Under the pieces are notes generated by a model. The model saw nothing but the letters and a program-made list of their open reading frames with translations. It had not been told where the DNA came from and made no database searches. Positions 1,450-36,136 of a stretch of DNA of 39,240 nucleotides are shown piece after piece; the stretch's first letter is position 1, and each line of letters starts with the position of its first letter. The DNA comes from a virus (lineage: Duplodnaviria > Heunggongvirae > Uroviricota > Caudoviricetes), in IMG/VR virus record IMGVR_UViG_2634166457_000020, positions 1-39,240 of that record. The stretch is one strand, 5' to 3'. The translations under genes and the position numbers were made by a program.

Positions 1450-2093
1450 GCTGCACGCTCCCGCCCCTGGTTGTCTGTTGGTGACAGCGGAGCATTGCTG
1501 AATGCATTTGTTAATCTGGCAATATCCAACGCGTATCCAGGGTGTAGTTGCACTGCCGGGTCTTCGCACTGATTACCCCAAACATCGAAGCCATGAGACG
1601 ACTGGCGGGCGAACAGTTCAATGCGAGAAACATCGCCTAACAATTGCACAAGTTTTTCACGCACGACATCTGGTTTTCTTGAATGCTCAAGCCGCGGTGC
1701 GGTAAATGACTGAACGATCCCTGCATTAATGCGCGTAGGTAGTTTTCCCTTTACCGCAAACAGGCAATCTTCACTATTGGCGCGAGTCATGTGTCCCATA
1801 CCCATAACCAGTTTATCTGGTTGTCGACTACCACATTTTATCCACGTGAATCCCTTCATGGTCATCAGACGGAATCCCCAGGCTTCAACAACTTTTAGTG
1901 CTTCGAGTGGTTGTGTTGGCACCCACCACATTGCCAACAGACAGTTTTCATCGGACAAATCCCACACAGGAAGGCGGCAGATATCCAGCACACTCATAAC
2001 CGGATATTTAAAACCAGCGCCGCGATTACCATCTGCGGCTTTGTCCCGGTATACCCAGGGTGGATCTGCATAGATTAGCGTGTATTTTTTCAT
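1446..2093 (-). CDS. MT-A70 family (beta-class) N6-adenine DNA methyltransferase, 215 aa
   Basis: N-terminal catalytic motif IYADPPWVY (DPPW) characteristic of MT-A70/N6-adenine methyltransferases; start taken at MKKYTLIYADPPW (ATG 2093..2091), which overlaps the upstream gene stop (2092..2090) as ATGA. Confidence 0.8.
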   Translation of the reverse strand: MKKYTLIYADPPWVYRDKAADGNRGAGFKYPVMSVLDICRLPVWDLSDENCLLAMWWVPTQPLEALKVVEAWGFRLMTMKGFTWIKCGSRQPDKLVMGMGHMTRANSEDCLFAVKGKLPTRINAGIVQSFTAPRLEHSRKPDVVREKLVQLLGDVSRIELFARQSSHGFDVWGNQCEDPAVQLHPGYALDIARLTNAFSNAPLSPTDNQGRERAA

Positions 2094-3193
2094 TGTTCTG
2101 CTCCCAGACTTCCTTTGGTAAAAGCTTGTATCAGCCTGTTTGCTGCCGCTTTCTGTGCTGCTACATTGGCAATAACTGATAGTTTTTCCTGGCTTGCTTT
2201 CGTGCAGATCCCAACCCAATTATCCATTAGGAAAAAATTCTCTCTTTCTGCGAAGTCAGTATTTGCACATAATGTTTCAATCATTGAAATTATTTCTTTT
2301 ATTGAGTGATTAACCATCATTTGCTGAACAGCATAACCAAAAGCGTTAATCATCACTGCATGAAACTGGATATATTCTCTTTTGTATTCTGATTGCTTTG
2401 TACCATGGCGAATTGCTTCTAGTTGTGTAAGACATAACCATGATTCCCATACTGACTCGATGTTACCAATTTCTAGTTTTTTTCCATTATGAATACAAAA
2501 TTTTGATGTTGAATCACTTAATGCTTTGAAACTCACCCACATGTTTGACTTTGACGGAACAACGTTGTGCTCGAAGTCAGTGACTTCTGCAAAAGTGTCA
2601 TGTTGCGACAGGAAAGACACCATTTCTTGGGCAACATCGTTTCGTCCGTCATACGCCATATTAATTGCTGCAGATGGTTTTGAAACATTATTATTAATGT
2701 CAGAAAAGAACTGCTGACGCGCCTTCAAAGGAAGGTTATGCGTAAGTATAAGAGGAATCATAATTGTTTCACCATAATTACGGCAGAACTCAGCTAATCC
2801 TGCAGCACGATGCTGTCCATCAAATAATTTTATTTCTGCATCCATAGGAAATCTAGCTAAACCGACATTAGTATTTCCAATCTCATGGAACTCTATTTCT
2901 GAGTTACAATTTCCGACCAATGGTGGAACAATAAATGGTTCCTTTTTCTCGTAAGCGTTGACTAAATATTGATAAAACTTTTTTACCCTGGTTGGATTAA
3001 TTTCACGTTGAGAACGTTCAAGGGTACTTCCCGTATTGTCGGTTGCCAATACTCTCGATAGTGCTCTTGCTGGTACTGTCATCATAAGTATTACAGTGCT
3101 TCCCTGCGTTCCTCGTGATGCGGGAAATTCAAAGAAATAATCGCCTACCTTGCTCATGATATTACCTTTTATATTATTGTTTTGTTTATTCAT
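2090..3193 (-). CDS. DGQHR-domain protein (DndB-like / ParB-like DNA-binding), 367 aa (or 355 aa if start is ATG at 3157)
   Basis: Contains the FDGQHRAAGL motif defining the DGQHR domain family; tight coupling to the downstream methyltransferase. Confidence 0.7.
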   Translation of the reverse strand: MNKQNNNIKGNIMSKVGDYFFEFPASRGTQGSTVILMMTVPARALSRVLATDNTGSTLERSQREINPTRVKKFYQYLVNAYEKKEPFIVPPLVGNCNSEIEFHEIGNTNVGLARFPMDAEIKLFDGQHRAAGLAEFCRNYGETIMIPLILTHNLPLKARQQFFSDINNNVSKPSAAINMAYDGRNDVAQEMVSFLSQHDTFAEVTDFEHNVVPSKSNMWVSFKALSDSTSKFCIHNGKKLEIGNIESVWESWLCLTQLEAIRHGTKQSEYKREYIQFHAVMINAFGYAVQQMMVNHSIKEIISMIETLCANTDFAERENFFLMDNWVGICTKASQEKLSVIANVAAQKAAANRLIQAFTKGSLGAEQ

Positions 3194-3892: not shown

Positions 3893-4915
3893 TTACTCGA
3901 ATTCTGGACGCATATCGTTAAGCGTCATCATGAATTTTTGGTGATATTCATCACCGAGCTTTTCAGCCATGGTGTTAATTTCATTTTCAGCGCGCTTGAA
4001 CATCGTTTTTGCATCTTCAGCAGATGGATCCAGGCTATTAAGTATCGCGATGATATATTCTCGAGCTTCTTCTCGTTCTGAATCTGAAATTGGCGATAGG
4101 TGTTGACGCTCATCGTCAACTACGGAATATTCACCAGTGATAACAGCTGCGTTATCTTGGCTAAGTCCAGCTTCAGCGCGCTCATCCATAACAACAGCCT
4201 TCTGCATTTCAATAGAAACAGGAAGATATTTGAACAGTCGGCGAATTACTGTTTTTTTAGCCATCTCATCGAAGTGATCAACCCATGGGCCACTGCTACC
4301 GGCTTTGCTCAGTGCACGAACTTTCTCAACGTCTGCCCGGCTCATAACTTCAAATTGGACTCCGCCATCTTTCAGTCGTGCAACGGCGTAAACGTGCGTT
4401 AATTCTCCGCGGTCACCTGTTTCGCAAGGTAAATGCTCGAGCGTTTCTTCCAGGCCGTATGAGTAGCTGAATTTGTCGTTTGTATGTACGGTACGAGCCG
4501 AGATGCTCAGGATCTGCCCAGAGCGGCGGGCAAGGTCAATCATTCCGCGATAGCCGATAATCAGCTGTGCTTCTGTAGATACGGTTTCCCATCTTCCATT
4601 TACTTTCTGGCGTTTGTCGAACGGTATCAGGTAAGCGTGTCCAAGAGCTCCGCCTGGTTCAAGACCCAATTGGGCACATTGCATAATTGCCCCCAGGAAG
4701 CTGGCTTGGTCGCATGATGCAAGTTTTGGAACCTTTCGGATCTCTGTGGTTGCTATGCGCGCCAGACGGTCTGCTGTCATGTGCTTTGGAAGTGCCAAAG
4801 CCATCTGAGCTTTAATTTTTGGGTCTGCCAGAAGTCCGGCCAGAGTTGTTGGTTTCTCATTATGATGTGCAACTTGGTTACCGGTAGCCGCTGCCTTAAG
4901 TGCATTGATAGACAT
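3893..4915 (-). CDS. recT: RecT-family single-strand annealing recombinase, 340 aa
   Basis: Length and sequence character typical of RecT; immediately downstream of a YqaJ-type exonuclease in the same operon. Confidence 0.8.
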   Translation of the reverse strand: MSINALKAAATGNQVAHHNEKPTTLAGLLADPKIKAQMALALPKHMTADRLARIATTEIRKVPKLASCDQASFLGAIMQCAQLGLEPGGALGHAYLIPFDKRQKVNGRWETVSTEAQLIIGYRGMIDLARRSGQILSISARTVHTNDKFSYSYGLEETLEHLPCETGDRGELTHVYAVARLKDGGVQFEVMSRADVEKVRALSKAGSSGPWVDHFDEMAKKTVIRRLFKYLPVSIEMQKAVVMDERAEAGLSQDNAAVITGEYSVVDDERQHLSPISDSEREEAREYIIAILNSLDPSAEDAKTMFKRAENEINTMAEKLGDEYHQKFMMTLNDMRPEFE

Positions 4916-4924
4916 TTTTTCTCC

Positions 4925-5824
4925 TTACTTCATTCTGAAGACGCGTTGTGTCGTTGTTGTTTTGAATTTTTCGAATAACTCAGGGTGTACTGACTGGAAT
5001 AGCTTCTGGTCGAATCTGTTGCTGATCTGAGATTTCCATGTGCAGAGCGGCTTTCCGTCCAGGGTCAGGACTGAGTGCTCTTGCATGTACATCTTCAGCT
5101 TCTCTTCTGATATAGCTATTTCTTCTTCCAGTGATTTTCTGCGTGACTTCATGTCTCGTAGATCGTTGAATAGTGCGAGTGCCTTTCCGTCAGCCTCGAT
5201 ACTTGTCCCGGCCTCTTTCTCAAACATCAGCGATACATCGCTTACGCTGGTAGCTTCCGGCGGGTTAAGATTTTTCACTCGGTCCCAGAAAGCGATTTCT
5301 TTTTCTAAGATCGCCTGGATAGTTTCTTCATCACGCTCAACCCGATAGATTCGGAAGTCGTCGCCACCGATAAGCACACCGAAAACGCATACCTGTTTGT
5401 TTGTAACCATCAACCCGTGCATGGCCTGGGCCGTGTAATGCACAGGAATTGCATCTGTCTGGATTTCTCCCCATTCTTTGGCTTTGAACGGACTAACTGT
5501 TTTTATCTCAATGTTCTCGCCTGACGCTGCTTCTGCATCGATCTCAGCTGCAATAAAATCGTAATCACGGTGGATATAGCGGTTTCCGCGATGAACGATT
5601 TCCATCCCTGTTTCCTCAGAAAGCAGGTCTATTACGTATGGCTCCATACGCTGGCCACGCGTGAAAACTTTCTGCTTGCTTGGGTCTACTGGTTTGACAC
5701 GTGGCTGGACCTTATCCAGATAAACCTCAAGCGGGGTGCGCCATGGGCTAATTCCAAGAATCCCTGCAACATCGCTTCCTCCGATGTATTTTGTTCTATC
5801 CATGATTCCAGCGTTCCGCATCAT
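4925..5824 (-). CDS. YqaJ-like (lambda-exonuclease-like, PD-(D/E)XK) recombination exonuclease, 299 aa
   Basis: N-terminal RTKYIGGSDVAGILGISPWRTPLEVY matches the YqaJ viral recombinase exonuclease pattern; start ATG (5824..5822) overlaps the upstream gene stop (5823..5821) as ATGA. Confidence 0.75.
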   Translation of the reverse strand: MMRNAGIMDRTKYIGGSDVAGILGISPWRTPLEVYLDKVQPRVKPVDPSKQKVFTRGQRMEPYVIDLLSEETGMEIVHRGNRYIHRDYDFIAAEIDAEAASGENIEIKTVSPFKAKEWGEIQTDAIPVHYTAQAMHGLMVTNKQVCVFGVLIGGDDFRIYRVERDEETIQAILEKEIAFWDRVKNLNPPEATSVSDVSLMFEKEAGTSIEADGKALALFNDLRDMKSRRKSLEEEIAISEEKLKMYMQEHSVLTLDGKPLCTWKSQISNRFDQKLFQSVHPELFEKFKTTTTQRVFRMK

Positions 5825-6281: not shown

Positions 6282-6371
6282 TTACCTCGGTCTGTTACCG
6301 TTGAGGTAATAATTATGCGTATCTGGTTTGGTGTCAATAGATATGAGTTAAAAAAATTACCCATTAGGTAA
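6282..6371. promoter_or_regulatory. Leftward operator/promoter cluster (OL-like): TTACC-GTTGA-GGTAA (6295-6309), TTACC-CATTA-GGTAA (6357-6371), extra TTACC half-site 6282-6286
   Basis: Perfect 15-bp inverted repeats between the repressor terminator and the first leftward gene. Confidence 0.6.
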
Positions 6372-6428: not shown

Positions 6429-7013
6429 TTATTGTTTGTTTTTTTCGTTCTGGTTGATGACAAATTCAATGTAACTTTCGATCTTTGCTTTCTCGGTTTC
6501 GGGTAACAATGCGTAGCGCGAGCGATCATAGTTGATGGTCGCAGGGTCGTGCGGGTGAATCAGTAATTCATAGCCGTGACGCCCGAATGCGGATGCAACA
6601 TTCTCCAGGGTGGAAATGGAAACGCTGACCTCATTGTTTAACAGGCGGCTGATTGTCACCTGGGCGACGCCGGATGCGCGGTGAAGTTTTCCCTGAGTTG
6701 AAAGGTCGCGGCTTTCGCTCATCCAGCGTTCCAGGTTGTGAGCCGCCAGCTGACCAATGTCGCTTGGGCCGACAGGCTGAAAACCTTCCTGAGAAAGCGA
6801 GCGATCGATATCAAGCCAGTTACGGGGTTTATTGGCGGCAGCTTCAATTTTTCGCGCAACCTGGTCGCCGATAACCTTCTTGCCAAGAGCCCAGCGGTTT
6901 ACCAGATTTGCCTGAGTTCCAAGTTTTTCTGCCATCCGCGTCTGAACACCATTGAATTCACGGTCGATCAAGTCGTTGAGATTTTGCCTGCGGACGTCCT
7001 GGATACTTTTCAT
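6429..7013 (-). CDS. Phage repressor-like protein with two tandem XRE-type helix-turn-helix domains, 194 aa; no S24 peptidase domain
   Basis: HTH 1 TRMAEKLGTQANLVNRWALGKK; HTH 2 KLHRASGVAQVTISRLLNNEVSVSISTLENVASAFG; located between two operator clusters and divergent from a Cro-like gene. Confidence 0.65.
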   Translation of the reverse strand: MKSIQDVRRQNLNDLIDREFNGVQTRMAEKLGTQANLVNRWALGKKVIGDQVARKIEAAANKPRNWLDIDRSLSQEGFQPVGPSDIGQLAAHNLERWMSESRDLSTQGKLHRASGVAQVTISRLLNNEVSVSISTLENVASAFGRHGYELLIHPHDPATINYDRSRYALLPETEKAKIESYIEFVINQNEKNKQ

Positions 7014-13097: not shown

Positions 13098-13703
13098 ATG
13101 GTGGTTATGATGCCTGCTGAACCTAAAACCTATAAACGCAAATCAACGCAATTTAAGCCACTAACAGCAATGCAGGAGGCTTATTGCCAGTCATACATCA
13201 AAACGCCTGAAAACCAGACTCAGGCTGCGATTAACGCAGGATTCTCCCCAAATACAGCGGCAGTTAAAGCCAGTGTCATGATGCGCGATGAACGCATTCA
13301 GAAACGGATTGCCGAGTTGATGGAGGAGCGCAACAAACGAATGCGCGTCAGTGCTGATTACGTTCTCATGCGCCTGGTGGAGATCGACCAGATGGACGTG
13401 ATCGACATCCTCAACGACGATGGGAGCCTTAAACCAATCCGTGAGTGGCCGAAAATCTGGCGCACTACGCTTAGTGGCTTTGATCTGTCGTCGACCATCA
13501 TGAACATGAACGAGGATTCGATAGAGACAATCCTCAAAAAAATTAAATGGCCTGACAAGGTGAAGAACCTTGAGCTGATTGGTAAGCATGTTGATGTCAA
13601 CGCGTTCAAAGAACGTCTGGATGTTAATGTGAATGTGACAATTGCTGATCGCATAGCAGCAGCCAGGAAGCGACTCAAAGAACGTCAGGATGGTAATCAG
13701 TGA
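13098..13703 (+). CDS. Terminase small subunit, about 201 aa; start uncertain (13098, 13107 or 13110)
   Basis: Sequence YCQSYIKTPENQTQAAINAGFSPNTAAVKASVMMRDERIQKRIAEL resembles the HTH-type terminase small subunit family; stop overlaps the large subunit start (GTGA). Confidence 0.7.
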   Translation: MVVMMPAEPKTYKRKSTQFKPLTAMQEAYCQSYIKTPENQTQAAINAGFSPNTAAVKASVMMRDERIQKRIAELMEERNKRMRVSADYVLMRLVEIDQMDVIDILNDDGSLKPIREWPKIWRTTLSGFDLSSTIMNMNEDSIETILKKIKWPDKVKNLELIGKHVDVNAFKERLDVNVNVTIADRIAAARKRLKERQDGNQ

Positions 13704-15175
13704 CAGATACAGCGTTATCTCCTGAAGAGCAGTTGATCGAGGATATTGCAGGGTTCACTCACGATCCGCTTGGCTATGCCCTCTATGCGTTCCCGTGGGG
13801 GGAAGAAGGGACTGAACTGGCACATGCTACCGGCCCACGTCAGTGGCAGGCTGATGCGTTCCGAGAGATACGTGATCACCTGCAGAATCCAGCGACGCGC
13901 TATCAGCCGCTTATGCTGGCACGCGCTTCTGGTCACGGTATTGGTAAATCCGCATTCATCTCAATGCTGATCAACTGGGGCATGTCCACTTGCGAGGATT
14001 GTAAGGTCGTGGTGACCGCCAACACCGACAACCAGCTACGAACGAAGACCTGGCCGGAAATTATCAAGTGGTCGAACCTTGCTATCACGAAAGACTGGTT
14101 TACCTGTACCGCTACCGCGATGTACAGCAATGATCCTGGGCACGACAAGCGGTGGCGAGCTGACGCAATCCCCTGGTCTGAGCACAACACTGAGGCATTC
14201 GCCGGACTACACAACGAGCGCAAACGCATCATCGTGGTATTCGATGAAGCGTCGAACATTGCGGATCTGGTGTGGGAAGTTGCTGAGGGTGCGCTTACGG
14301 ACGAAGACACTGAGATTATCTGGGTGGCGTTCGGAAACCCTACACGTAACACCGGGCGTTTCCGCGAATGTTTCCGCAAATATAAACACCGCTGGAAAAC
14401 TGCGCAGATTGACAGCCGGACGGTGGAAGGCACTAACAAACAGCAGTTGCAGAAATGGGTTGATGACTACGGGGAAGACAGCGACTTCGTTAAAATCCGT
14501 GTGCGCGGCATATTCCCGGATGCATCTGAATTGCAGTTTATCCCTACCGGACTTACTGACGAGGCAATGAAACGGGTGGTCACCGCTGCGCAGGTTGCAC
14601 ATGCTCCGGTGATAATCGGCGTTGACCCGGCATACTCAGGCGTTGATGACGCTGTGATATACCTGCGGCAGGGGCTGCACAGTAAGGTGCTGTGGACTGG
14701 CAACAAGACCACTGACGATCTGATTATGGCGAAGCGTATCGCTGACTTTGAAGACCAGTACCAGGCTGACGCAGTGTTCATCGACTTCGGTTACGGAACT
14801 GGTCTGAAGTCAATCGGTGACGGCTGGGGTCGTACATGGCAACTTGTTCCGTTCGGTGGCGCGTCTACTGACCCGCAGATGCTCAACAAGCGTGGGGAGA
14901 TGTTCAACTCATGTAAGACATGGCTGAGGCTGGGCGGCATGCTGGATGACCAGGAAACTGCAGACGACCTGTCGGCGGCAGAGTACAAAGTTCGAGTGGA
15001 CGGTAAAATCGTTATCGAACCGAAGGAAGATATCAAAGAGCGACTTGGGCGTTCGCCGGGTAAAGGCGATGCGCTGCTGCTGACGTTTGCTTTCCCGGTG
15101 TCGAAGCGCCTGCGACTTCCCGGGCAGCAGAACCAGCAAGGCAAGGCGCTTACCGAGTACGATCCATATGCTTAG
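13700..15175 (+). CDS. Terminase large subunit, 491 aa
   Basis: Walker A-like LARASGHGIGKSAF, Walker B-like IIVVFDEASNI, C-terminal nuclease-like region; typical size and position. Confidence 0.9.
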   Translation: MTDTALSPEEQLIEDIAGFTHDPLGYALYAFPWGEEGTELAHATGPRQWQADAFREIRDHLQNPATRYQPLMLARASGHGIGKSAFISMLINWGMSTCEDCKVVVTANTDNQLRTKTWPEIIKWSNLAITKDWFTCTATAMYSNDPGHDKRWRADAIPWSEHNTEAFAGLHNERKRIIVVFDEASNIADLVWEVAEGALTDEDTEIIWVAFGNPTRNTGRFRECFRKYKHRWKTAQIDSRTVEGTNKQQLQKWVDDYGEDSDFVKIRVRGIFPDASELQFIPTGLTDEAMKRVVTAAQVAHAPVIIGVDPAYSGVDDAVIYLRQGLHSKVLWTGNKTTDDLIMAKRIADFEDQYQADAVFIDFGYGTGLKSIGDGWGRTWQLVPFGGASTDPQMLNKRGEMFNSCKTWLRLGGMLDDQETADDLSAAEYKVRVDGKIVIEPKEDIKERLGRSPGKGDALLLTFAFPVSKRLRLPGQQNQQGKALTEYDPYA

Positions 15176-15768
15176 TCTTTATTTTTATCCTCGAAACCTG
15201 ATAATCCAGATAGAACACCAAAGTTATTAAAAACGTCTGGCTTACCAGATTTTAATCCGGATAAGTTGTGTTGCTCCAAAAAGTTGCTAATTGTTTGGCC
15301 GTTGCCAAGTGCAAGACTTTTTATTTGAGATTTTTCAGGGTATTTGAGTTTGTATTCGTCGAAATCATTTTGGAGGGTCTTATATGCCTCATTCATTCTT
15401 CCCAGAGTTTCCGATATCTCTTTTAATGAATGATTTAGAGCTGCTAACTGAGCACTGGCGGATCTCAATTCGTCATCTTTAGCTTTCAACTCGGCAGTCA
15501 ATTCCCCCATACTATTCTTTGATCGAATAATCTCTTCTTTCATCTCTTGGATGTCTTTTTCCGCGCCAGTCTTAACTTTGTCGTATGTAACATCTTTTTT
15601 AGCCAATAACCTCTGCAGTCTGGTTTCACGCTGGATTTTTCTTGCCTTCAGGTGATTATCGATTGAGTCATTATTATCAAGAGGCTTTGCTTGCCATACG
15701 TTAATGATATTGTTTACCCATGGTAATAGGCAGCAGATAGCAATTACAGATAAGCATGGATAAAACAT
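15172..15768 (-). CDS. Moron-encoded membrane-anchored coiled-coil protein, 198 aa
   Basis: N-terminal hydrophobic anchor LSVIAICCLLPW then long K/E-rich heptad-like region; AT-rich, antisense to the late operon; stop overlaps terminase stop (TTAG). Confidence 0.55.
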   Translation of the reverse strand: MFYPCLSVIAICCLLPWVNNIINVWQAKPLDNNDSIDNHLKARKIQRETRLQRLLAKKDVTYDKVKTGAEKDIQEMKEEIIRSKNSMGELTAELKAKDDELRSASAQLAALNHSLKEISETLGRMNEAYKTLQNDFDEYKLKYPEKSQIKSLALGNGQTISNFLEQHNLSGLKSGKPDVFNNFGVLSGLSGFEDKNKD

Positions 15769-15777
15769 AACAGTTTT

Positions 15778-15990
15778 TCATGTGCTGTTATCTGAGATAT
15801 ATGAAATTTTATCTATTATGTTTGATTTGCTAAAAAATAGATAAAGAATTGATTTCCAGTTGAAGGCGCACCAGGACATAACAAAAGCACCAAGCACAGG
15901 GTTTTTGGCTCGATTCACGGCAGTATTGGCAGTAGATAAAAACAGCTCTTTGAAGGATTCAAACATGCTAATTACCTTGAAGTTTTTCAT
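15778..15990 (-). CDS. Moron-encoded small membrane protein, about 70 aa
   Basis: Start at MKNFKV (ATG 15990..15988) with AAGG SD; hydrophobic segment PVLGAFVMSWCAFNW; 9 bp upstream of the 198-aa gene. Confidence 0.45.
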   Translation of the reverse strand: MKNFKVISMFESFKELFLSTANTAVNRAKNPVLGAFVMSWCAFNWKSILYLFFSKSNIIDKISYISDNST

Positions 15991-16025: not shown

Positions 16026-16049
16026 AAAAAAATGCCCGGCGAACCGGGC
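16026..16049 (-). terminator. Rho-independent terminator on minus strand (GCCCGG-CGAA-CCGGGC plus U-tract), downstream of the tRNA
   Basis: 6-bp GC stem 16034-16049 with A-run 16026-16032 on plus strand. Confidence 0.6.
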
Positions 16050-16212
16050 GAACTGGAAGCAATGAGTTATGCCTTCCGTGGCTGTACTGGTTTACAGCAT
16101 GAAGTCATCGCAATGGCGTCCTGCTGTAAAAAGGGCGGTGATAGTCCTTCAAGGGAAACCATCACCGCCAAGCCCCTGGAACTTCTGGCATCACGGTCCT
16201 TAGGCGTGATTC

Positions 16213-16289
16213 TGGCGTGGCATGCAGGATTCGAACCTGCGACCAACCGCTTAGAAGGCGGTTGCTCTGTCCAACTGAGCTAATGCCAC
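16213..16289 (-). tRNA. tRNA-Arg (anticodon UCU, reads AGA), 77 nt including encoded CCA
   Basis: Manually folded cloverleaf: acceptor GUGGCAU/AUGCCAC, D-stem GCUC/GAGC, anticodon stem ACCGC/GCGGU with loop CUUCUAA, T-stem GCAGG/CCUGC with loop UUCGAAU, discriminator G, CCA. Confidence 0.85.
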
Positions 16290-16716
16290 AACGCTGAGAG
16301 CACTTAGCCTGTTAAGGCACCACACTTTGTCGCGGCTCCATAAATGCTCTCATCGTTGTACCCTCGTCTCTTCCGAGGCGTCACACCGAATCGCCGGGAT
16401 GGTGAATCCCCGTGCGCGGAATAAAACCGCTCGACTTGCACATTCCGGCTACCTGGTTCGTTTGCCCGAGCAAGGGAGGGTGCCCCTTAAACGTATCCAG
16501 ACCGCTATCGTCGCATGTGCCATACGCCGTACTGCTCAAAATAAAAGCTCACTCCACCTGTTCAATTTAACGACAAGCCAGTCAGGTTAGTAACCGGAAT
16601 GAACCCTTTAGTTACCTGAAGGGTAATAATTCGCGCGTTAAATGTCAACTGTCTACGATAAATAAATCATATGTGGTTAAATTGGTAATGATTTAATTGC
16701 GTACGGAGTCATTGAT

Positions 16717-16923
16717 ATGTGCATGGGTAGCTCACCATCAGTGCCTGCAACACCAGAAGTTCAGGCAGCACCACAGGAGCAGGATGCCGCCGTTGTTGAT
16801 GCCCGCGACGAAGAAACTCGTCGCCGTCGCGCTGCTGCTGGTCGTAGTTCTACGCTGCTTACCGGTTCTCAGGGCGACACATCAACCGCTAATACCAGCG
16901 GTAAAACGCTGCTTGGTCAGTAA
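16717..16923 (+). CDS. Small hypothetical protein, 68 aa, first gene of structural operon
   Basis: ATG preceded by CGGAGTCATTGA, the same initiation context as the portal gene. Confidence 0.45.
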   Translation: MCMGSSPSVPATPEVQAAPQEQDAAVVDARDEETRRRRAAAGRSSTLLTGSQGDTSTANTSGKTLLGQ

Positions 16924-16937
16924 CCGGAGTCATTGAA

Positions 16938-18617
16938 ATGGCGGAAACAACTAAAGAGCGATTGAACAAACAGTTCGCACAACTTGAAAGCGAGCGTCAG
17001 TCGTTCGAGCCGCACTGGCGCGAGTTGAGTGATTACATCAACCCGCGTGGTTCCCGCTTTCTGACTTCTGAGGTCAACCGTAACGATCGACGCAATACAC
17101 GCATTATTGATTCGACCGGGACTATGGCGGCGCGCACTCTCGCCAGCGGCATGATGTCAGGCATCACAAGCCCCGCGCGTCCGTGGTTTCGCTTGGCTAC
17201 GCCAGATCCTGAAATGATGGATTATGGCCCTGTTAAGTTGTGGCTTGAGGCGGTGCAGAACCGCATGAACGATATGTTCAATAAGTCGAATCTCTACCAG
17301 TCTCTTCCGCAGTTATACGGAAGCCTCGGCACATACAGCACCGGTGCAATGGCGGTACTGGAGGATGACGAGGACATCATTCGCACAATGCCATTCCCGA
17401 TAGGCAGTTACTACCTGGCTAACTCACCTCGTGGCAGTGTGGACACCTGTTTTCGCAAGTTCTCTATGACTGTTCGTCAGCTTGTTCAGGAGTTCGGGCT
17501 AAATAACGTCAGCGAATCCGTAAAAAGCATGTGGGAAAGCGGCACCTACGAGAAGTGGATTGAAGTGATGCATTCGGTTTACCCGAACATTGACCGCGAT
17601 ACATCGAAGCTGGATAGCAAGAACAAGCCATTCAAATCGGTTTATTACGAGGTTGGTGGCGATAACGACAAGTTGTTGCGTGAGTCCGGATTCGATGAGT
17701 TTCCAATTATGGCTCCGCGCTGGGAAGTTAACGGCGAAGATGTTTATGGATCATCATGCCCGGGTATGCTGGCGCTTGGACCTGTTAAGGCATTGCAGCT
17801 TCTCCAGAAGCGCAAGTCGCAGTTGATTGATAAAGCCACCAATCCGCCGATGGTTGCTCCGACTTCCCTCAAGAATCAGCGCGCCTCCCTTCTTCCTGGC
17901 GACATCACGTATATCGATCAGATTACTGGTCAGGATGGTTTCAGGCCTGCTTATCTGGTTAACCCCAGTACAGCAGATCTGGTAGCAGACATTCAGGACA
18001 CTCGCCAAATCATTAACAGCGCCTACTTTGTCGATCTGTTCATGATGTTGCAGAACATCAATACCCGCTCGATGCCTGTTGAAGCAGTGATCGAAATGAA
18101 AGAAGAAAAGCTTCTGATGTTGGGGCCGGTTCTGGAGCGTCTGAACGACGAATGTCTTAATCCTCTCATTGACCGCGCTTTCTCGATGATGGTGCGTAAA
18201 AACATGCTGCCGCCACCGCCTGACGCGATGGAAGGCATGCCCCTGAAGGTCGAATACATTTCCGTCATGGCTCAGGCGCAGAAGTCTATCGGCCTGTCCA
18301 GTCTGGCGTCCACGGTTAACTTCATTGGTCAACTTGCGCAAGCGAAACCAGAAGCTCTCGACAAACTCAATGTTGATCAGGCGATCGATGCATTCGCTGA
18401 TATGTCCGGAGTGTCTCCAACCGTCATTGTTCCGCAGGAACAGGTTGAGCAGGCTCGCCAGCAACGGGCACAGCAGCAACAGCAGCAACAAATGATGGCG
18501 ATGGGAATGGCGGCGGCACAGGGCGCCAAGACGCTAAGCGAAGCTAAAACTTCGGATCCGAGTGTTTTGTCAGCTATGGCGAATGCAGTTAGTGGTCAGG
18601 GTGGGCAATCACAATGA
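16938..18617 (+). CDS. Portal (head-tail connector) protein, 559 aa
   Basis: Size, position after terminase, N-terminal ERQSFEPHWRELSDYINP and Q-rich C-terminal tail typical of podovirus portal proteins. Confidence 0.8.
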   Translation: MAETTKERLNKQFAQLESERQSFEPHWRELSDYINPRGSRFLTSEVNRNDRRNTRIIDSTGTMAARTLASGMMSGITSPARPWFRLATPDPEMMDYGPVKLWLEAVQNRMNDMFNKSNLYQSLPQLYGSLGTYSTGAMAVLEDDEDIIRTMPFPIGSYYLANSPRGSVDTCFRKFSMTVRQLVQEFGLNNVSESVKSMWESGTYEKWIEVMHSVYPNIDRDTSKLDSKNKPFKSVYYEVGGDNDKLLRESGFDEFPIMAPRWEVNGEDVYGSSCPGMLALGPVKALQLLQKRKSQLIDKATNPPMVAPTSLKNQRASLLPGDITYIDQITGQDGFRPAYLVNPSTADLVADIQDTRQIINSAYFVDLFMMLQNINTRSMPVEAVIEMKEEKLLMLGPVLERLNDECLNPLIDRAFSMMVRKNMLPPPPDAMEGMPLKVEYISVMAQAQKSIGLSSLASTVNFIGQLAQAKPEALDKLNVDQAIDAFADMSGVSPTVIVPQEQVEQARQQRAQQQQQQQMMAMGMAAAQGAKTLSEAKTSDPSVLSAMANAVSGQGGQSQ

Positions 18618-18910
18618 CAGATTACGAAGACGATCAACTGAAAGAAGAAAACGCCCGTAAGCAACGTGACATGGCGCAGCGTGAAATTGATGACATTCGC
18701 TTTGTCATGAGCAGTGAACAGGGGCGTCGCGTTGTCTGGTCGGTGCTGGAGAAAGGCCGTGTGTTTTCCGCTATCTCACCGATGGACGCTATGGCAATGG
18801 CATTTAATGAGGGGCAACGCAATCTGGCGCTGGAACTGTTTCAGCGCGTTATGGCGCATTGCCCTGAACAGTATTTGAAGATGGCCAAAGAGGCCAGTGA
18901 ACAGGAGTGA
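18614..18910 (+). CDS. Hypothetical head-assembly protein, 98 aa
   Basis: ATGA overlap with portal stop; position between portal and scaffold. Confidence 0.45.
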   Translation: MTDYEDDQLKEENARKQRDMAQREIDDIRFVMSSEQGRRVVWSVLEKGRVFSAISPMDAMAMAFNEGQRNLALELFQRVMAHCPEQYLKMAKEASEQE

Positions 18911-18912
18911 TC

Positions 18913-19608
18913 ATGAATTTATTTGAGCGTTTGCTGTATCGCCGTCTTTGCAATGAGCAACCAGTCGATGGTGGAGCAGCTCCGGCTGCGTCAGAACCGT
19001 CAGCGCCTGCAGGTGATAACCCTGCTCCAGTTGGTGATCCATCACAACAAGAAGGTGATAAGCCGCAACCTGTTGCTGATGGCGATAAACCTGCTGATGA
19101 CAAAAAGCCTGAAAGCGATAAGCAGGGTGAAAAAAAGGACGGCGATAAACCGGATGGTGCGCCGGAGAAGTACGAGTTTCAGGCTGCCGAAGGCGTAGAG
19201 CTGGATACAGAAGCGTTAAAGGAATTCGAGCCGGTGGCGCGAGAACTTAACCTGACCAACGAGCAAGCGCAAAAGCTGGTTGATGCTTATCCGAAGATTC
19301 TGGCAGGTGTGCAGCAGCGCCAGGCAGAAGCCTGGCAGAAAACAACCGAGCAGTGGGCTGCTGATGTAAAAGCTGACAAAGAAATCGGTGGCGACAAGTT
19401 AATTTCTAACCTCAGCGCCGCACAGCGTGCGCTTGACCAGTTCGGGACACCTGAGCTCAAAGAATATCTGAACACCACCGGACTGGGTAATCACCCTGAT
19501 CTGGTCAAAACGTTCGTGAAAATCGGAAAGGCGATGTCTGAAGATGGCATGGTCACCGGTGGTAATGAAGGCCAGCGTAGTGCGGCCGAAGTGCTCTATG
19601 GCAAATAA
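18913..19608 (+). CDS. Putative scaffolding protein, about 231 aa
   Basis: Acidic, Pro/Ala-rich N-terminal region and helical C-terminal region, located between portal and major capsid gene. Confidence 0.55.
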   Translation: MNLFERLLYRRLCNEQPVDGGAAPAASEPSAPAGDNPAPVGDPSQQEGDKPQPVADGDKPADDKKPESDKQGEKKDGDKPDGAPEKYEFQAAEGVELDTEALKEFEPVARELNLTNEQAQKLVDAYPKILAGVQQRQAEAWQKTTEQWAADVKADKEIGGDKLISNLSAAQRALDQFGTPELKEYLNTTGLGNHPDLVKTFVKIGKAMSEDGMVTGGNEGQRSAAEVLYGK

Positions 19609-19622
19609 GAGAGGAAATGACA

Positions 19623-20609
19623 ATGGCTGTTAAAGGCTTAACTGCGCTAACGCTGGCTGACTGGGGTAAGCGCGTCGATCCAAACGGGAAAGTCGATAAG
19701 ATTATCGAGCTTCTCGGTCAAACTAACCCGATCCTTCAGGATATGCCTTTTGTCGAAGGGAACCTTCCTACCGGACACCGAACCACCATTCGTTCTGGTT
19801 TACCTTCAGCTACCTGGCGTTTGCTGAACTATGGCGTACAGCCAAGCAAATCAACCACAGTGCAGGTGACCGATTCCGTTGGCATGTTGGAAACCTATGC
19901 TGAAGTCGATAAGTCACTGGCTGATCTGAACGGTAATACCGCCGAATTCCGCCTGTCTGAAGACCGTGCATTTATTGAAGCGATGAATCAGCAGATGGCG
20001 CAGACACTGTTTTATGGTGATTCCAGCGTTAACCCTCAGCAGTTTATGGGACTGTCCTCCCGCTATTCCAGCCTGTCTGCGGGTAATGCTCAGAACATCA
20101 TTGATGCTGGTGGCACGGGTACAGATAACACCTCAATCTGGTTAGTGGTGTGGGGCGAAAACACCGTGCATGGCATCTTCCCGAAAGGGCAGAAGGCTGG
20201 CATCCAGATGGAAGATAAAGGCCAGGTGACACTGGAAGATGCTAATGGCGGCAAGTACGAAGGCTACCGTACCCATTACAAATGGGACAACGGACTTGCT
20301 CTGCGTGACTGGCGTTATGTTGTTCGCATTGCAAACATCGATGTCAGCAATCTTTCAGAACCTTCCTCTGCCGCAAATATTGCGAAGTTGATGGTTAAAG
20401 CACTGCATCGCATTCCAAACCGTGGCATGGGTCGCCCGGTGTTCTACATGAACCGCACTGTAGGCCAGGCTCTTGATCTGCAATCTCTGGAGAAAACATC
20501 TCTGGCGATCAGCGTAAAAGAGACAGAAGGCGAGTGGTGGACTTCATTCCGTGGTGTACCAATCCGTGAAACTGATGCGCTTCTGGAAACAGAAGCCCGC
20601 GTGGTGTAA
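19623..20609 (+). CDS. Major capsid protein, about 328 aa
   Basis: Size and position; strong SD AAGAGAGGA with ATG at 19623; followed by a stem-loop. Confidence 0.7.
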   Translation: MAVKGLTALTLADWGKRVDPNGKVDKIIELLGQTNPILQDMPFVEGNLPTGHRTTIRSGLPSATWRLLNYGVQPSKSTTVQVTDSVGMLETYAEVDKSLADLNGNTAEFRLSEDRAFIEAMNQQMAQTLFYGDSSVNPQQFMGLSSRYSSLSAGNAQNIIDAGGTGTDNTSIWLVVWGENTVHGIFPKGQKAGIQMEDKGQVTLEDANGGKYEGYRTHYKWDNGLALRDWRYVVRIANIDVSNLSEPSSAANIAKLMVKALHRIPNRGMGRPVFYMNRTVGQALDLQSLEKTSLAISVKETEGEWWTSFRGVPIRETDALLETEARVV

Positions 20610-20660
20610 CGCCTGTTATTAACCTGTGGGCCGTAACAGACCCACTAATGGAGAAAGAAG

Positions 20661-21098
20661 ATGATCACCGACAAACTGTTGATGTTCTCCGAAGCTCAGG
20701 CGGTTACGAATACCGCGGCTTCTACTGACGTAATCGATCTCGGTCCAATTGACGGAAAACGTCGTGATATCGGCGTGGGTTACCCGCTTGAGTTTTGGGC
20801 GCTGGTTAACACAGCCGCCGCAGCAAGCGGTGATGCAACTGTAAACATCCAGTTGCAGACGAGTGAGAATAACAGCTCATGGACCACTATTTATGATAGT
20901 GGCGCATTGGCAAAGACCGCCCTGACAGCAGGTAAACGAGTTGTTTCTGCAAAGGTGCCTGCCGGTGTTCAGCGATATCTGCGTGTTAACTACTCCGTCG
21001 CAACTGGCCCACTAACGGCTGGCGAATTCACTGCGGGTATCAGTCTTGATGTTGATGCCAATACGCCGTATCCGATCCGCTCAAAAGTAACTGGTTAA
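20661..21098 (+). CDS. Hypothetical capsid-associated protein (possible decoration protein), 145 aa
   Basis: Position immediately after the capsid gene; strong SD. Confidence 0.45.
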   Translation: MITDKLLMFSEAQAVTNTAASTDVIDLGPIDGKRRDIGVGYPLEFWALVNTAAAASGDATVNIQLQTSENNSSWTTIYDSGALAKTALTAGKRVVSAKVPAGVQRYLRVNYSVATGPLTAGEFTAGISLDVDANTPYPIRSKVTG

Positions 21099-33349: not shown

Positions 33350-36106
33350 ATGACGGTCTCAACCGAAGTTGACCACAACGAATACATTGGTAACGGTGTT
33401 ACAACGACATTCCCTTATACATTCAGGATTTTCCAGAGATCAGATCTGGTAGTACATGTGGTTGACCTTGATGAAAATATCGCTGTGCTGGCGCTTGATA
33501 CTGATTACACAGTTACCGGGGCTGGTGGATACAACGGTGGTAATGTGATATTGACTACGGCACTGGCCAGCGGATACCAGATTTCCATATCGCGAGAACT
33601 CCCGGTTACGCAGGAAACTGATCTGCGCAATCAAGGGAAGTTCTTTGCTGAGGTGCATGAGGATGCATTTGATAAGCTAACGATGTTGATTCAGCAGGTT
33701 AGAAGTTGGTTTAGCCTAGCGCTGCGCAAACCGTCATTCGTGGCAAGCTATTACGATGCTTTAAATAATTACATCAGAAATTTGCGTGATCCACTACATC
33801 CACAGGATGCAGCCACTAAAAACTATGCTGACTCATTAAATGCTGAAAATACATCACATACAGATTTGTTATTTAGTAGAACTTTGCGTACAGCAGAAGG
33901 TATTCCACAATTACCATCTGCAGAGTTCCGCAAAAATAAAATTGTTGGTATGGATAATGACGGTAACCCGATCATGTTGTTACCGGAATCTGGTTCTGCC
34001 TCTGATGTTCTGCTGGAGTTGGCAAAACCAACTGGTGCCAGTTATATCGGTACGAAGTATGGTAGTCTTGATGAGTACATAGACAATACTCCAAGCCTGT
34101 TAGCCACAAAGTATATGGATGAAATTGAGATGGCAGCACTGGAGTCAGGTGACTTGTCAGTAAACCATCAGCCAAAGGTCCAGCAGGTAATGGATGAAGC
34201 CCATAACAGGAAATGCTCAGTGTATTTCCCGCCAGGTACATACTGCTTTGATACCGCTGTTAACGTCTGGTCTTACGTCCGTTCTGTTTGGGGTGACGGT
34301 AGTGCAATTATTACTCGTCGGTATCGCACGTTTTTTGTTGATGGCTCAACGACAGATATTGATCCGGCGCGTGATACACGTAAATTATTCCGATTGTTAA
34401 ATGGGGCATTGGGGTATATATCAGTGCATGGTATTACGTTTGATGGTAATGCCAGATCTATCGAGGTGTCGGAATCCGGTACGAGCGGTACGACAGGAAT
34501 TCCAGACCAAACATATTATCAGGACCTGGAGCCTGGTGGCACCTCTCCTTATGTCCATGGGCCTGATGGTAACATCCCTGTTCATGGGGAAAGCTATTAC
34601 AACCACGCAAAGAAACTGTCTGGAACAGATGTGTATGATTGTGTGTTTCGTGATGCTCCAGGCGGATGTATTGTTGGTAACTTCAGAAATCTTAGGGTCT
34701 CCTCAAACTCATTTTTGGGTTGGTATGATCACGCAATTTACGCAGCAGGAAGTGCTTTCGCTGATCAGGGTAATGGAATTTTGGTTGGTGATATTACGGT
34801 CACTGGGAATACCTTCAGGAACAGAATAAACACTCGTGGTAATGGGGCTGTTAAAGGAAGGTTTGGTTTTGACCGTTATACAGTTACTGGCAATACATTT
34901 GATGTTGTTGATTATTGTATGGCGTTTGATACTGGTCACGGGATGGTCGGAAGTGTTTACGCCATGCAGCCATGGGGGCAGATCACTGTAACTGGTAATA
35001 CATGCACCTGTGATAGTTATTGGATGATGATAGGTAACAACAGAGGTGTTAAGTGGTTTGATAACGGATGGATGTCTGCTATCAATATTTCTAACAACAC
35101 AGTCCAATCTAAGGATAGGATCCTGTTACTTGGAGTTAGCGGCAGTAATGATTATTTGATGGATGCATATCAAGTAAATATATCCAATAACACTTTTTCT
35201 GCACCTAACTTCTTATCGCTTTACACTCATTTAACTAACTGCGATTGGCGCATAGAAAGTAACAACATAACAATTACTAACACAGGGATGATTATAGGTG
35301 TAGACCAGGCTGAGGTTTCAAACTCAGTTCTTAGGCTTACAAATAATATAATGGGACGTGTATTAACGACCTCTACTGGCAATCTTCATCTCAGCAATTT
35401 CGAGCGCGTTATCATGAAAGGTAATGAGATTCGAAATCTGTCTATGAGTTTTGGTAGCTACGTTACTGACCTAACTATTGAAGGAAATGAATTCAGGTAC
35501 TCTTCTGCACTTCCTTCAAAACCATTTGGCTTTATGTACTCATCTGCTGGCAATGGATTCAACAGAATTAAATTATGTAAAAATAAAATCGTGGGTAGTC
35601 CAATAAGATTTTCCGTGAAATGCTCATCTGATTGTGTTCTTGACATGAGTGATAATAGCATTTACGGAATTACTGATTACTTCCTTGAGTTGAATGCAAC
35701 TGGTTACACTCCTAAAACCATGAGGGTTAACAACAATCTGGTGATAGGTGGTGCGCTAATAGCTGATCTTCCTGCTGGAGTATCTCTTGGTAGCACCTCA
35801 AGTTATATGGAGTTGATGAACAACACCTTACGATCAACTTCTCCAGGGACACAGCAGTCATGTACCATTCTGCGTGATGGAGGCGCTCAATCTTGGCTTA
35901 GCCATTATCAAACTATTCGGTGTGTAAAAAACACATTCCGCGATGTCACTAACATATTGAAAATAGATGGCTCTGCTTCTTCTGGGGTTTCTACAACTAA
36001 TAAGTTCTGGTTCGGCGAGAATCAGACATACAATTCAACGTTGACATGTAACTATCCTTCAATAAACAAGTCAAACACAGATGTCACACAGACTTTAAGT
36101 GTATAG
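33350..36106 (+). CDS. Tailspike/tail fiber protein with conserved N-terminal virion-attachment domain and beta-helix-like repeats, 918 aa
   Basis: N-terminal region EYIGNGVTTTFPYTFRIF typical of tail fiber/tailspike anchor domains; repetitive TVTGNTF-type segments suggest a right-handed beta-helix. Confidence 0.8.
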   Translation: MTVSTEVDHNEYIGNGVTTTFPYTFRIFQRSDLVVHVVDLDENIAVLALDTDYTVTGAGGYNGGNVILTTALASGYQISISRELPVTQETDLRNQGKFFAEVHEDAFDKLTMLIQQVRSWFSLALRKPSFVASYYDALNNYIRNLRDPLHPQDAATKNYADSLNAENTSHTDLLFSRTLRTAEGIPQLPSAEFRKNKIVGMDNDGNPIMLLPESGSASDVLLELAKPTGASYIGTKYGSLDEYIDNTPSLLATKYMDEIEMAALESGDLSVNHQPKVQQVMDEAHNRKCSVYFPPGTYCFDTAVNVWSYVRSVWGDGSAIITRRYRTFFVDGSTTDIDPARDTRKLFRLLNGALGYISVHGITFDGNARSIEVSESGTSGTTGIPDQTYYQDLEPGGTSPYVHGPDGNIPVHGESYYNHAKKLSGTDVYDCVFRDAPGGCIVGNFRNLRVSSNSFLGWYDHAIYAAGSAFADQGNGILVGDITVTGNTFRNRINTRGNGAVKGRFGFDRYTVTGNTFDVVDYCMAFDTGHGMVGSVYAMQPWGQITVTGNTCTCDSYWMMIGNNRGVKWFDNGWMSAINISNNTVQSKDRILLLGVSGSNDYLMDAYQVNISNNTFSAPNFLSLYTHLTNCDWRIESNNITITNTGMIIGVDQAEVSNSVLRLTNNIMGRVLTTSTGNLHLSNFERVIMKGNEIRNLSMSFGSYVTDLTIEGNEFRYSSALPSKPFGFMYSSAGNGFNRIKLCKNKIVGSPIRFSVKCSSDCVLDMSDNSIYGITDYFLELNATGYTPKTMRVNNNLVIGGALIADLPAGVSLGSTSSYMELMNNTLRSTSPGTQQSCTILRDGGAQSWLSHYQTIRCVKNTFRDVTNILKIDGSASSGVSTTNKFWFGENQTYNSTLTCNYPSINKSNTDVTQTLSV

Positions 36107-36107
36107 T

Positions 36108-36136
36108 AAAAAGGCGGCAATGCCGCCTTTGTTTTA
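36108..36136. terminator. Bidirectional rho-independent terminator between tailspike (+) and acyltransferase (-): GGCGGC-AAT-GCCGCC flanked by A-run and T-run
   Basis: 6-bp stem 36113-36127 with AAAAA upstream and TTTGTTTTATTTT downstream. Confidence 0.65.

Follow-up and report, generated by a model that had tools for sequence, protein, structure and literature searches.

A conserved pseudoknotted RNA beside a phage tRNA-Arg(UCU) gene, a candidate early-leader antiterminator of temperate enterobacterial phages

Introduction

What is encoded in a long non-coding stretch that lies next to a phage transfer RNA (tRNA) gene? This question is raised by positions 16213 to 16716 of the virus sequence IMGVR_UViG_2634166457_000020 (hereafter the window, by which we mean the whole 39,240 nucleotides (nt) of DNA analysed), for which a first-pass annotation had described a tRNA-Arg(UCU) gene on the minus strand and, next to it, about 430 nt that could hold the promoter of the tRNA, a late promoter and possibly a small RNA. 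The surroundings of the tRNA match phiV10, TL-2011b, ZX5 and other Uetakevirus genomes at about 98%, with epsilon15 and SPN1S being more distant, and on this sequence similarity the window is a temperate phage of the phiV10/epsilon15-like Uetakevirus group. Here we describe a large structured RNA in this stretch, which is also found in phages of unrelated types, and we discuss whether it could act as an antiterminator in the early transcripts of its carriers. To our knowledge, processive antitermination by an RNA alone is known from essentially one small family, the put RNAs of HK022 and a few relatives; the put antiterminators of HK022 and HK639 were reportedly characterised by King, Weisberg and colleagues.

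Results

A large structured RNA in the non-coding stretch

A covariance model of the element, R1, matches the minus strand of the window at 16529-16356 with 140.4 bits (E 6.6e-42), and no second copy is present in the window. This core of about 175 nt comprises the helices P1, P2, P4 and P5, a pseudoknot and a variable P3 region, and the whole element, including the 3' hairpin P6, extends over about 245 nt (16286-16529). In an alignment of 31 diverse sequences 97.4% of the cells were paired and 11 of the 26 pairs showed changes on both sides, values that none of 500 shuffles reached, and sliding the structure by one to three columns left only 29-53% paired. The same was found for 101 model hits (75 of them distinct), with 97.4% of the cells paired, 12 of 26 pairs changed on both sides, no shuffle out of 500 reaching these values and 30-53% paired after the slide. 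Read on the minus strand, the alignment holds 235 G-U cells and 9 A-C cells, and since G-U far exceeds A-C the structured RNA is placed on the strand of the tRNA; a plus-strand RNA was rejected on this asymmetry and on the pairing, which is 97.4% on the minus and 85.6% on the plus strand. We are thus close to certain that the structured RNA exists, folds and sits on the minus strand.

The hairpin P1 (16509..16529, minus strand), CGGCGUAUG-GCA-CAUGCGACG in the window and CGGCRUAUG-GCA-CAUGYGYCG in consensus, covaries in its lower 5 base pairs (bp), with pair 5-17 being GC in 49 and AU in 25 sequences, and its UGGCACAUG is near-invariant. P2 (UCYG/CRGG) closes a variable insert that usually contains UCCYUUG. 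A 17-mer, GUAGCCGGAAUGUGCAA (16436..16452, minus strand), followed by the variable region, is identical in all 7 phage copies that a similarity search found independently of it. P4 is a hairpin of 4 bp at 16396-16411 with the loop UUCACCA, all four pairs of which have changed on both sides, and the CACC of its loop pairs with the downstream strand GGUG (16384-16387) in a pseudoknot (16384..16411 in total, minus strand) that covaries to AACC/GGUU, with pair 142-162 being CG in 59 and AU in 16 sequences. The hairpin P5, CCUCG-GAAGAGA-CGAGG (16362..16378, minus strand), shows compensatory changes in 4 of 5 pairs. P6 (16286..16358 on the minus strand, the hairpin itself at 16358-16289), written CAACGAUGAGAGCA...UGCUCUCAGCGUUG and ending in the conserved tail GUUGUGG, has 35 distinct stem variants that are compensatory, for example GAGAGCA/UGCUCUC, AAGAGCA/UGCUCUU and GAGAGUA/UACUCUC; the lambdoid and Uetakevirus types have it, and phage P1 does not. 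RNAalifold additionally proposed a long-range pairing, GCACAU/AUGUGC, that would replace the upper part of helix P1 and that is neither supported nor excluded, because both segments are invariant.

A protein-coding reading of 16290-16716 was rejected, as no reading frame is kept among homologues. The open reading frames (ORFs) called within it are short and start with TTG or GTG, an 83-amino-acid (aa) ORF of the Stx2c-phage copy (Stx, Shiga toxin) maps to two different frames of the window (16327-16590 and 16412-16570), and the variable segments of the homologues differ by insertions and deletions; because of the broken frames and of these indels we consider the stretch non-coding, in agreement with the earlier view that it has no convincing ORF. 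In public records hypothetical proteins are called over these RNAs, namely PhiV10p04 (L001 2061-2312) and mEp460 gp37 (L006 2930-3298). The former is a hypothetical ORF antisense to the tRNA of phiV10, a tRNA that is missing from the phiV10 RefSeq record, and the gp37 call of mEp460 overlies the structured RNA.

The window and the P1, Stx2c, UTI89 and HK022 loci were searched with Rfam 15, both at the gathering threshold and at permissive ones, and nothing was returned over the element, at E values up to 10 in the window and up to 1 in the phage P1, Stx2c and UTI89 copies. The only families found at these loci were tRNAs, C4, isrK and STnc100, all of them outside the element. As HK022 putL was not matched either, put itself appears to be absent from Rfam.

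Distribution in phages and prophages

A BLAST search with 16290-16625 retrieved the Uetakevirus relatives together with sharply bordered copies of 70-83% identity in unrelated phages. Its lambdoid carriers include cdtI, mEp460, Ayreon, 2H10, Stx2c phages and some Stx2a phages, and the other carriers are P1 and P7, Uetakevirus-like phages of E. coli, Salmonella, Klebsiella and Enterobacter, and one phage listed as a Stenotrophomonas phage. In almost all of the matching phage records the region of the element is unannotated. Among complete E. coli genomes, 1,840 of 5,426 (about 34%) have a BLAST match, 1,472 of which cover at least 80% of the 246-nt query; the matches lie on chromosomes and on P1-like plasmids, with no annotated feature among the matches listed. 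The structured RNA is unannotated in the GenBank phage records and RefSeq E. coli genomes examined, and has no Rfam family.

We also used the 17-mer as an exact pattern, so that all copies retrieved in this way hold GUAGCCGGAAUGUGCAA by construction, and confirmed them afterwards with the whole model. The pattern retrieved at least 119 contigs from IMG/VR. Among species-representative genomes it was found in 54 stretches, 25 of which the model confirmed, corresponding to 20 Enterobacterales species and one short contig of a metagenome-assembled genome (MAG); the matches outside Enterobacterales (Bacteroidales, Chloroflexota and other MAGs) were set aside as chance, the model giving them E values of 0.002 or worse.

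Only a single copy of the element per phage was found, except for one tandem pair, seen in the IMG/VR contig L025, where an antisense ORF stands between two copies (3994-4152 and 4801-4957) that are about 800 nt apart. No copy was found in the CPS-53 prophage of K-12, though yfdP, yfdQ and yfdR are common to it and to lambdoid hosts of the element. In epsilon15 (L003 1692-1793) only P1 and half of P2 remain, fused into the loop of the terminator T1 (described below) through a shared UUCCCUUGAUGCU repeat. The arrangement resembles the outcome of a deletion between the UUCCCUUGAUGCU inside P2 and the one in the T1 loop, by which the tRNA and the remainder of the element were lost.

The literature searched, outside of which lie King et al. 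2011 and the P1 genome paper, contained no paper with the core sequences of the element, and nothing on the element was found in the literature on put-like or RNA-mediated antitermination. The Pas small RNAs were considered and dropped, as they belong to the late region and are unrelated.

Genomic contexts

The element was found in three settings: after the CI repressor gene and the promoter pL in many lambdoid prophages, between trnI and ban in phage P1, and in epsilon15-like phages. These three groups of phages are of unrelated types and no neighbouring gene is common to the copies, which would point to host machinery as the partner of the RNA. In every context inspected the element is co-oriented with the flanking operon.

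In lambdoid prophages the order is a divergent cro-like gene, a CI-type repressor, a terminator, a promoter with operators, the element, a non-coding stretch of 150-600 nt with one or two terminators, and then the co-oriented early-left genes; between the element and the terminator no N-like ORF was found in the lambdoid loci inspected. The Stx2c phage L007 has a promoter, TTGACA-16-CATAAT (11 of 12 matches), that ends about 50 nt before helix P1, and in UTI89 the repressor and the element are followed by a terminator, GGCGGUACCAG...CUGGUACCGCU-CUUUUUAC, and then by yfdP, yfdQ and yfdR. About half of the nearest upstream co-oriented ORFs (43 distinct) are repressors with a helix-turn-helix (HTH) or a Peptidase_S24 domain, and the median gap from the stop codon of the upstream ORF to helix P1 is 140 nt (66 distinct ORFs). 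Strict sigma-70 matches end 5-55 nt upstream of helix P1 in 29 loci, and in several of them the promoter ends about 5 nt before it, so that P1 would stand at roughly +2. In phage P1 the element lies within the C1-controlled ban operon, in the order trnI, element, ban, with the ban start codon within about 90 nt.

At least one sense-strand intrinsic terminator lies within 1.2 kb downstream in 85% of the copies, and is followed by co-oriented genes. A particular type of terminator, GGCGGU...ACCGCC-CUUUUUACA, with a covarying stem, a loop of UCCUU type and often GCUGUGUGUAGUC in front, stands behind the element in many heteroimmune phages (for example at L130 7387-7431, L083, L100 and L012), and T1 of the window belongs to it; a terminator of this T1 type would appear to be no generic one but a partner of the element. 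In the rightward operon of lambdoid carriers, a Rha/antirepressor gene was also seen to be preceded by the Rfam C4 antisense RNA and by isrK (L130 4707-4895; L007 5277-5465), an arrangement that is the P1/P7-type immI module.

The promoter, operators and terminators of the window

Upstream of the element, a sigma-70-like leftward promoter was recognised in the sequence at 16620..16648 (minus strand), with the -35 box TTGACA at 16648-16643, a spacer of 17 nt and the -10 box TACCCT at 16625-16620; TTGAC is invariant in an alignment of five phages, and the scan tool gives an offset variant, TAGACA-18-AATTAT. It is likely the promoter of the tRNA. The stretch from the presumed transcription start (about 16613) to helix P1 (16530..16613, minus strand) would be a leader, and is partly conserved in Uetakevirus-type copies.

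The -10 box is overlapped by an operator-like palindrome, TTACCTGAAGGGTAA (16612..16626). The pattern TTACC-N5-GGTAA has 12 sites in the window (starting at 6295, 6357, 7069, 7117, 9400, 9462, 13075, 13093, 15995, 16612, 33230 and 37318) against 0.71 expected, and none of 100 shuffles reached 12. Four of the sites flank an ORF for an HTH repressor (6429-7013) and the remainder precede several operons, which suggests a P1-like dispersed operator network for the prophage repressor. The homologous site in the epsilon15 record carries the annotation 'repressor'; the promoter at 16620-16648 would be under repressor control. The repressor of ZX5 has been verified in a study that leaves the RNA element unmentioned (PMC9782041).

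Downstream, T1 (16124..16169, minus strand) was found by the terminator scan as GGCGGUGAUGG...CUAUCACCGCC followed by CUUUUUACA; it consists of a 14-pair hairpin and the U-run CUUUUUAC (CTTTTTAC) and starts 43 nt past the 3' end of the tRNA, which bears out the proposal that the tRNA has a terminator of its own downstream. Two conserved hairpins and a strong second terminator, T2 (16049-16026), follow at 16026..16123 (minus strand), and these hairpins together with the strong U7 terminator are kept even in the tRNA-less epsilon15. This segment resembles a small RNA, and its sole Rfam likeness is a weak RyhB-type match (E=2.3). A promoter-like site with an operator of 1 mismatch lies at 16020-15992, immediately 5' of the moron ORFs.

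The long region upstream of the tRNA thus does hold a promoter-like site, as had been anticipated, together with an operator-like palindrome, but its main content is a large structured RNA that is independent of the tRNA. The suggestion of a possible small RNA was misplaced in emphasis, given the size of the structured RNA and the 77 of 119 copies that have no tRNA nearby.

The tRNA is cargo of a familiar kind

ARAGORN reports a single tRNA in the 39,240-nt window, a tRNA-Arg with the anticodon tct at position 35 and an encoded CCA (16213..16289, minus strand), and the Rfam tRNA model RF00005 gives it 73.3 bits (E 2e-14; gathering score 29); both tools confirm the canonical minus-strand tRNA-Arg(UCU) read from the letters. 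No second or degenerate tRNA was found by ARAGORN or Rfam within 16290-16716. Residue A20 is an identity element of arginyl-tRNA synthetase, and it is present here (GG-A20 in the D loop, as seen in the argU alignment). The tRNA departs from argU of E. coli K-12 mainly in its acceptor and anticodon stems, where the changes are compensated, and the homologues of Salmonella and Klebsiella phages share these compensated changes, the CCA and A20. E. coli argU and argN/argO of Stx phages agree with it in the anticodon and in A20, and their D and T arms are almost identical to its own. The tRNA-Arg genes of Stx2 phages were matched by BLAST and likewise decode a rare codon for AGA-rich phage genes, but the tRNA of the window differs from argN/argO in its place, as it sits between the structured RNA and its terminator and not in a cluster upstream of stx. 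By its sequence the tRNA is an ordinary, already familiar kind of phage cargo, an argU-like AGA decoder.

AGA is used in E. coli K-12 about 2 times per 1000 codons according to codon-usage tables. In the ORFs of the window it reaches 7.3 per 1000 (91 of 740 Arg codons) and is thus about threefold enriched over the host, most of all in AT-rich cargo genes. It accounts for 4 of 7 Arg codons in the moron at 15172-15768, for 7 of 11 in the Acyl_transf_3 gene (36134-37252, with a GC fraction of 0.34), for 5 of 15 in the DndB-like gene (2090-3193) and, in the tailspike gene (33350-36106), for 10 of 43 beside 9 AGG, and is absent (0) from the head genes from portal to capsid (16938-21098). The per-gene count proposed in the first-pass annotation therefore found the enrichment in the moron and the acyltransferase gene, and none in the head genes. 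The related idea, that the tRNA helps the translation of AT-rich cargo, is favoured by this enrichment, but the tRNA would probably be an early lytic product, because its promoter overlaps the site annotated as a repressor site in epsilon15, and not a helper of lysogenic conversion in the lysogen. If the operator has been read correctly, derepression would switch the tRNA on, and its main beneficiaries would be lytic genes, early and late, and the downstream moron, with less benefit to the conversion genes of an uninduced lysogen.

Among the 119 distinct copies of the structured RNA, 27 have a tRNA-Arg(UCU) downstream, 15 have a tRNA(CAT) upstream as in phage P1, and 77 are without a nearby tRNA; the Uetakevirus Tyrion has the structured RNA and lacks the tRNA. 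Because of these 77 copies we regard the tRNA as cargo that was inserted between P6 and T1 in one lineage. At 16286-16292 the element ends in its conserved GUUGUGG, the GUGG of which is at the same time nucleotides 1-4 of the tRNA; tRNA-less copies read GUUGUGGU there. The tRNA may have been inserted by recombination at the GUGG microhomology.

Neighbouring genes of the window

The local order is terminase, moron ORFs, T2, T1, tRNA, the 'non-coding' stretch, gp3 and portal. On the plus strand lie the large terminase (13700-15175), gp3 (16717-16923; 68 aa with an Arg-rich run) and the portal gene (16938-18617), and on the minus strand, beyond T1 and T2, two AT-rich moron ORFs of 70 and 198 aa (15172-15990) without a significant Pfam family. 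The possibility that gp3 is an N-like protein was set aside, since its place between terminase and portal is that of lambda W and since neither the lambdoid nor the P1 contexts contain it. Immediately 5' of the gp3 start codon there is an AT-rich block (16655-16716, plus strand), about 50 nt of which are 100% identical in an alignment of E. coli, Salmonella and Klebsiella phages, a conservation greater than that of the flanking genes. A promoter scan did not find a clean sigma-70 match on its plus strand, and the block may be a late promoter or an activator site. Elsewhere in the window, the DndB-like protein is encoded by an AT-rich gene (GC 0.38; 2090-3193, minus strand; PF14072, E 2e-46), which is probably a moron related to defence or to DNA modification.

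Comparison with known antitermination systems

Like putL and putR of HK022 and the putL-like RNA of HK639, which are RNAs acting in cis at the start of early operons of temperate enterobacterial phages without an N there, the element begins early operons in such phages, and as with HK022 putL it lies just downstream of pL, at about +2 in some copies, with terminators after it. At the lambdoid loci L007, L130, L115, L035 and others we found this slot complete: the element stands in cis, an early promoter upstream, terminators downstream, and no N. A likeness in sequence is also present, since the lower stem of P1 with its 3' flank, CGGCG-N7-CAUGCGUCG, corresponds to CGGCG-N11-CAUGCGUCG in stem I of HK022 putL and of the HK639 putL-like RNA. 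This shared motif, CGGCG..CAUGCGUCG, amounts to 14 specified nucleotides, with no further profile similarity, and the HK022 and HK639 sequences examined contain its 3' half (CAUGCGUCG) at no other place. In the cryo-electron microscopy structure of putL the essential U28 (the U of CAUG) lies in a pocket near the beta' zinc-binding domain (PMC9378689). In copies of the element UGGCACAUG is almost invariant and the paired nucleotides below it covary.

On the other hand, the element is larger than put (175-245 nt, with five or six helices and a pseudoknot), and it occurs also in the non-lambdoid phage P1 and in epsilon15-like phages. Homology to put was rejected: R1 gave no hit on HK022 and HK639, and the two-stem architecture of about 70 nt, with a stem I triplex and a stem II, was not found. 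A likeness between the GGAAGAG loop and put was dropped as well, for HK639 has the register GCUC-AGGAA-GAGC and the element CCUCG-GAAGAGA-CGAGG. Because both architecture and profile similarity speak against it we do not file the element as put, and it would on sequence grounds be a new variety of cis-acting early-leader or antiterminator RNA of temperate phages.

Two further systems can be compared. The N/nut system of lambda takes the same slot, from pL to the first early-left terminator, and the 3' strand of P6 carries a boxA-like UGCUCU(U/C) followed by a G/U-rich tail (for the boxA consensus see PMC3177189; it is also general knowledge), with the difference that in the element it is paired within a covarying stem. 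No boxB-type hairpin of the nut kind was recognised in the element and no N-like ORF was found before the terminator. Moreover, the Bacillus EAR (eps-associated RNA), reportedly described by Irnov and Winkler in 2010, is a large structured RNA for processive antitermination. The element resembles EAR in exceeding 100 nt, in its pseudoknot, in the cis action we propose and in that it may sit inside an operon, as it does within ban of phage P1, but EAR comes from a different phylum and has no sequence or Rfam relation to the element.

Discussion

We tentatively favour the view that the element is a cis-acting early-leader RNA that promotes read-through of terminators and works like put of HK022. 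Under this hypothesis the locus of the window would be transcribed leftward as a single early unit of a phiV10/epsilon15-like temperate phage, in which a sigma-70-type promoter, with its -10 box inside a repressor-operator-like palindrome, starts transcription near 16613. The transcript would contain, in this order, a leader of 84 nt, the pseudoknotted core of 175 nt (16529-16356), P6, the tRNA, T1 and T2; the tRNA-Arg(UCU) would be cut out by RNase P (RNase, ribonuclease), and the two AT-rich moron genes would be reached only upon read-through of T1 and T2. The structured RNA could be the older and portable part of this unit, an autonomous leader module of repressor-controlled early operons in unrelated phages. 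Possibly with, possibly without host Nus factors, the nascent RNA would act on the polymerase that made it, and the polymerase so modified would resist downstream terminators (processive antitermination), as happens with the HK022 put RNAs. We infer the transcription start, the co-transcription of these parts and the antitermination mechanism from sequence. Action in cis on the polymerase would be the simplest mechanism to fit all contexts, because the element is self-contained, portable and co-oriented, and stands at the nutL/N or putL slot in front of terminators.

Several observations weigh against this hypothesis. Sense-strand terminators are barely more frequent downstream of the element (1.19 per kb) than upstream (1.02 per kb; antisense 0.58 per kb), and in phage P1 no terminator was found between the element and ban. 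R1 gives nothing above noise at HK022 putL or at the HK639 putL-like RNA, the five helices and pseudoknot in about 175 nt stand against the two stems and about 70 nt of put, and there is normally a single copy per phage where HK022 has both putL and putR. The motif shared with put was noticed post hoc. In the window read-through is not required: T1, right behind the tRNA, can be understood as the normal 3' boundary of a tRNA transcript, and a separate promoter-like site precedes the moron ORFs. Furthermore, epsilon15 is viable with a truncated copy, and antitermination by the element is proposed from sequence context.

How do other explanations fare with the same evidence? The element could be part of a discrete early RNA that acts in trans as a decoy, a sponge or a regulator of a host factor or defence, being the first early product and ending at the T1-type terminator, with the tRNA of the window embedded in it and processed out. 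First place in early transcripts is typical of counter-defence functions, and the early first position of the element fits such a role, as does the portability of the module between unrelated phages. The recurrence of GGCGGU..ACCGCC-CUUUUUACA in many loci, with its covarying stem and a UCCUU-type loop motif that is also found in P2, gives such an RNA an end, and the long near-invariant single strands (the 17-mer and UGGCACAUG) would suit the binding of a partner. We nevertheless consider it unlikely, since co-oriented genes follow at every locus inspected, the distance to the first terminator ranges from 186 nt to more than 1 kb, the types of phage P1, L068 and L100 show no detectable terminator before the next gene, and the ban start codon of phage P1 is only about 90 nt away. 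Even less probable, in our judgement, is a conditional leader, that is a riboswitch-like or factor-sensing attenuator that binds a ligand, a protein or a tRNA and decides on continuation into the early-left genes. The multi-helix junction, the pseudoknot and the conserved junction nucleotides do look aptamer-like, the RNA has a 5' leader position with a terminator downstream, two rare-codon tRNA genes are adjacent to it in 42 of 119 copies, and in the lambdoid and P1 subtypes an upstream GUUGUA may pair with UGCAAC after P5 in competition with the base of P6, which from these sequences would make a possible switch. Set against this, the terminator lies from 150 to more than 800 nt from the core and the tRNA or antisense moron genes may intervene, an arrangement incompatible with a simple overlapping expression platform; there is no match to an Rfam riboswitch; and confinement to enterobacterial temperate phages would be unusual for a metabolite sensor.

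An effect on the transcript with the polymerase unaffected is about as improbable as such a conditional leader: the element would here be a processing or stability module that protects downstream RNA from 5'-end-dependent decay or guides RNase P, E or III. It abuts the tRNA in the window, where the closing pair of P6 includes G1 of the tRNA, it directly follows trnI in phage P1 and would thus form the 5' end of the ban messenger RNA after processing by RNase P and RNase E, and the epsilon15 record annotates an RNase III site beside the truncated copy. Protective 5' hairpins, however, need neither 17 invariant single-stranded nucleotides nor a covarying pseudoknot, and 77 of the 119 copies have no nearby tRNA to be processed. 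We find it very hard to believe that there is nothing functional beyond the promoter and leader of the tRNA, with the conservation coming from a decayed gene, from recent spread or from a site acting at the DNA level; many copies are closely related and public records place hypothetical ORFs over the region (mEp460 gp37, PhiV10p04), but compensatory changes in five helices and in P6, the strong asymmetry of G-U over A-C, frames that are broken between homologues and the constant co-orientation with the flanking operon all argue against it.

Returning to the hypothesis of an early-leader antiterminator, we hold its wider form with more doubt. In this form the element would represent a new autonomous class of polymerase-acting antiterminators, pseudoknotted and of about 175 nt, sharing with put only the first-stem motif, perhaps conditional in action and carried as a cassette by lambdoid, P1-like and epsilon15-like phages, which would govern early-left transcription (recombination, excision, morons) in the prophages that roughly one E. 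coli strain in three carries, Stx2c phages and UTI89 among them. If true, a larger and far commoner RNA would occupy the slot of put, which would make polymerase-modifying RNAs a general strategy of phages and offer structural biology a new complex of polymerase and RNA. Should the mechanism be another one, it would still be notable that phage P1, Stx2c-converting phages and about 34% of the complete E. coli genomes carry a strongly covarying RNA that is unannotated. For genome annotation it means that spurious ORFs are at present called over the element. Importantly, expression from a repressor-controlled early promoter, as we propose here, would bear on prophage induction and on the biology of Shiga-toxin phages.

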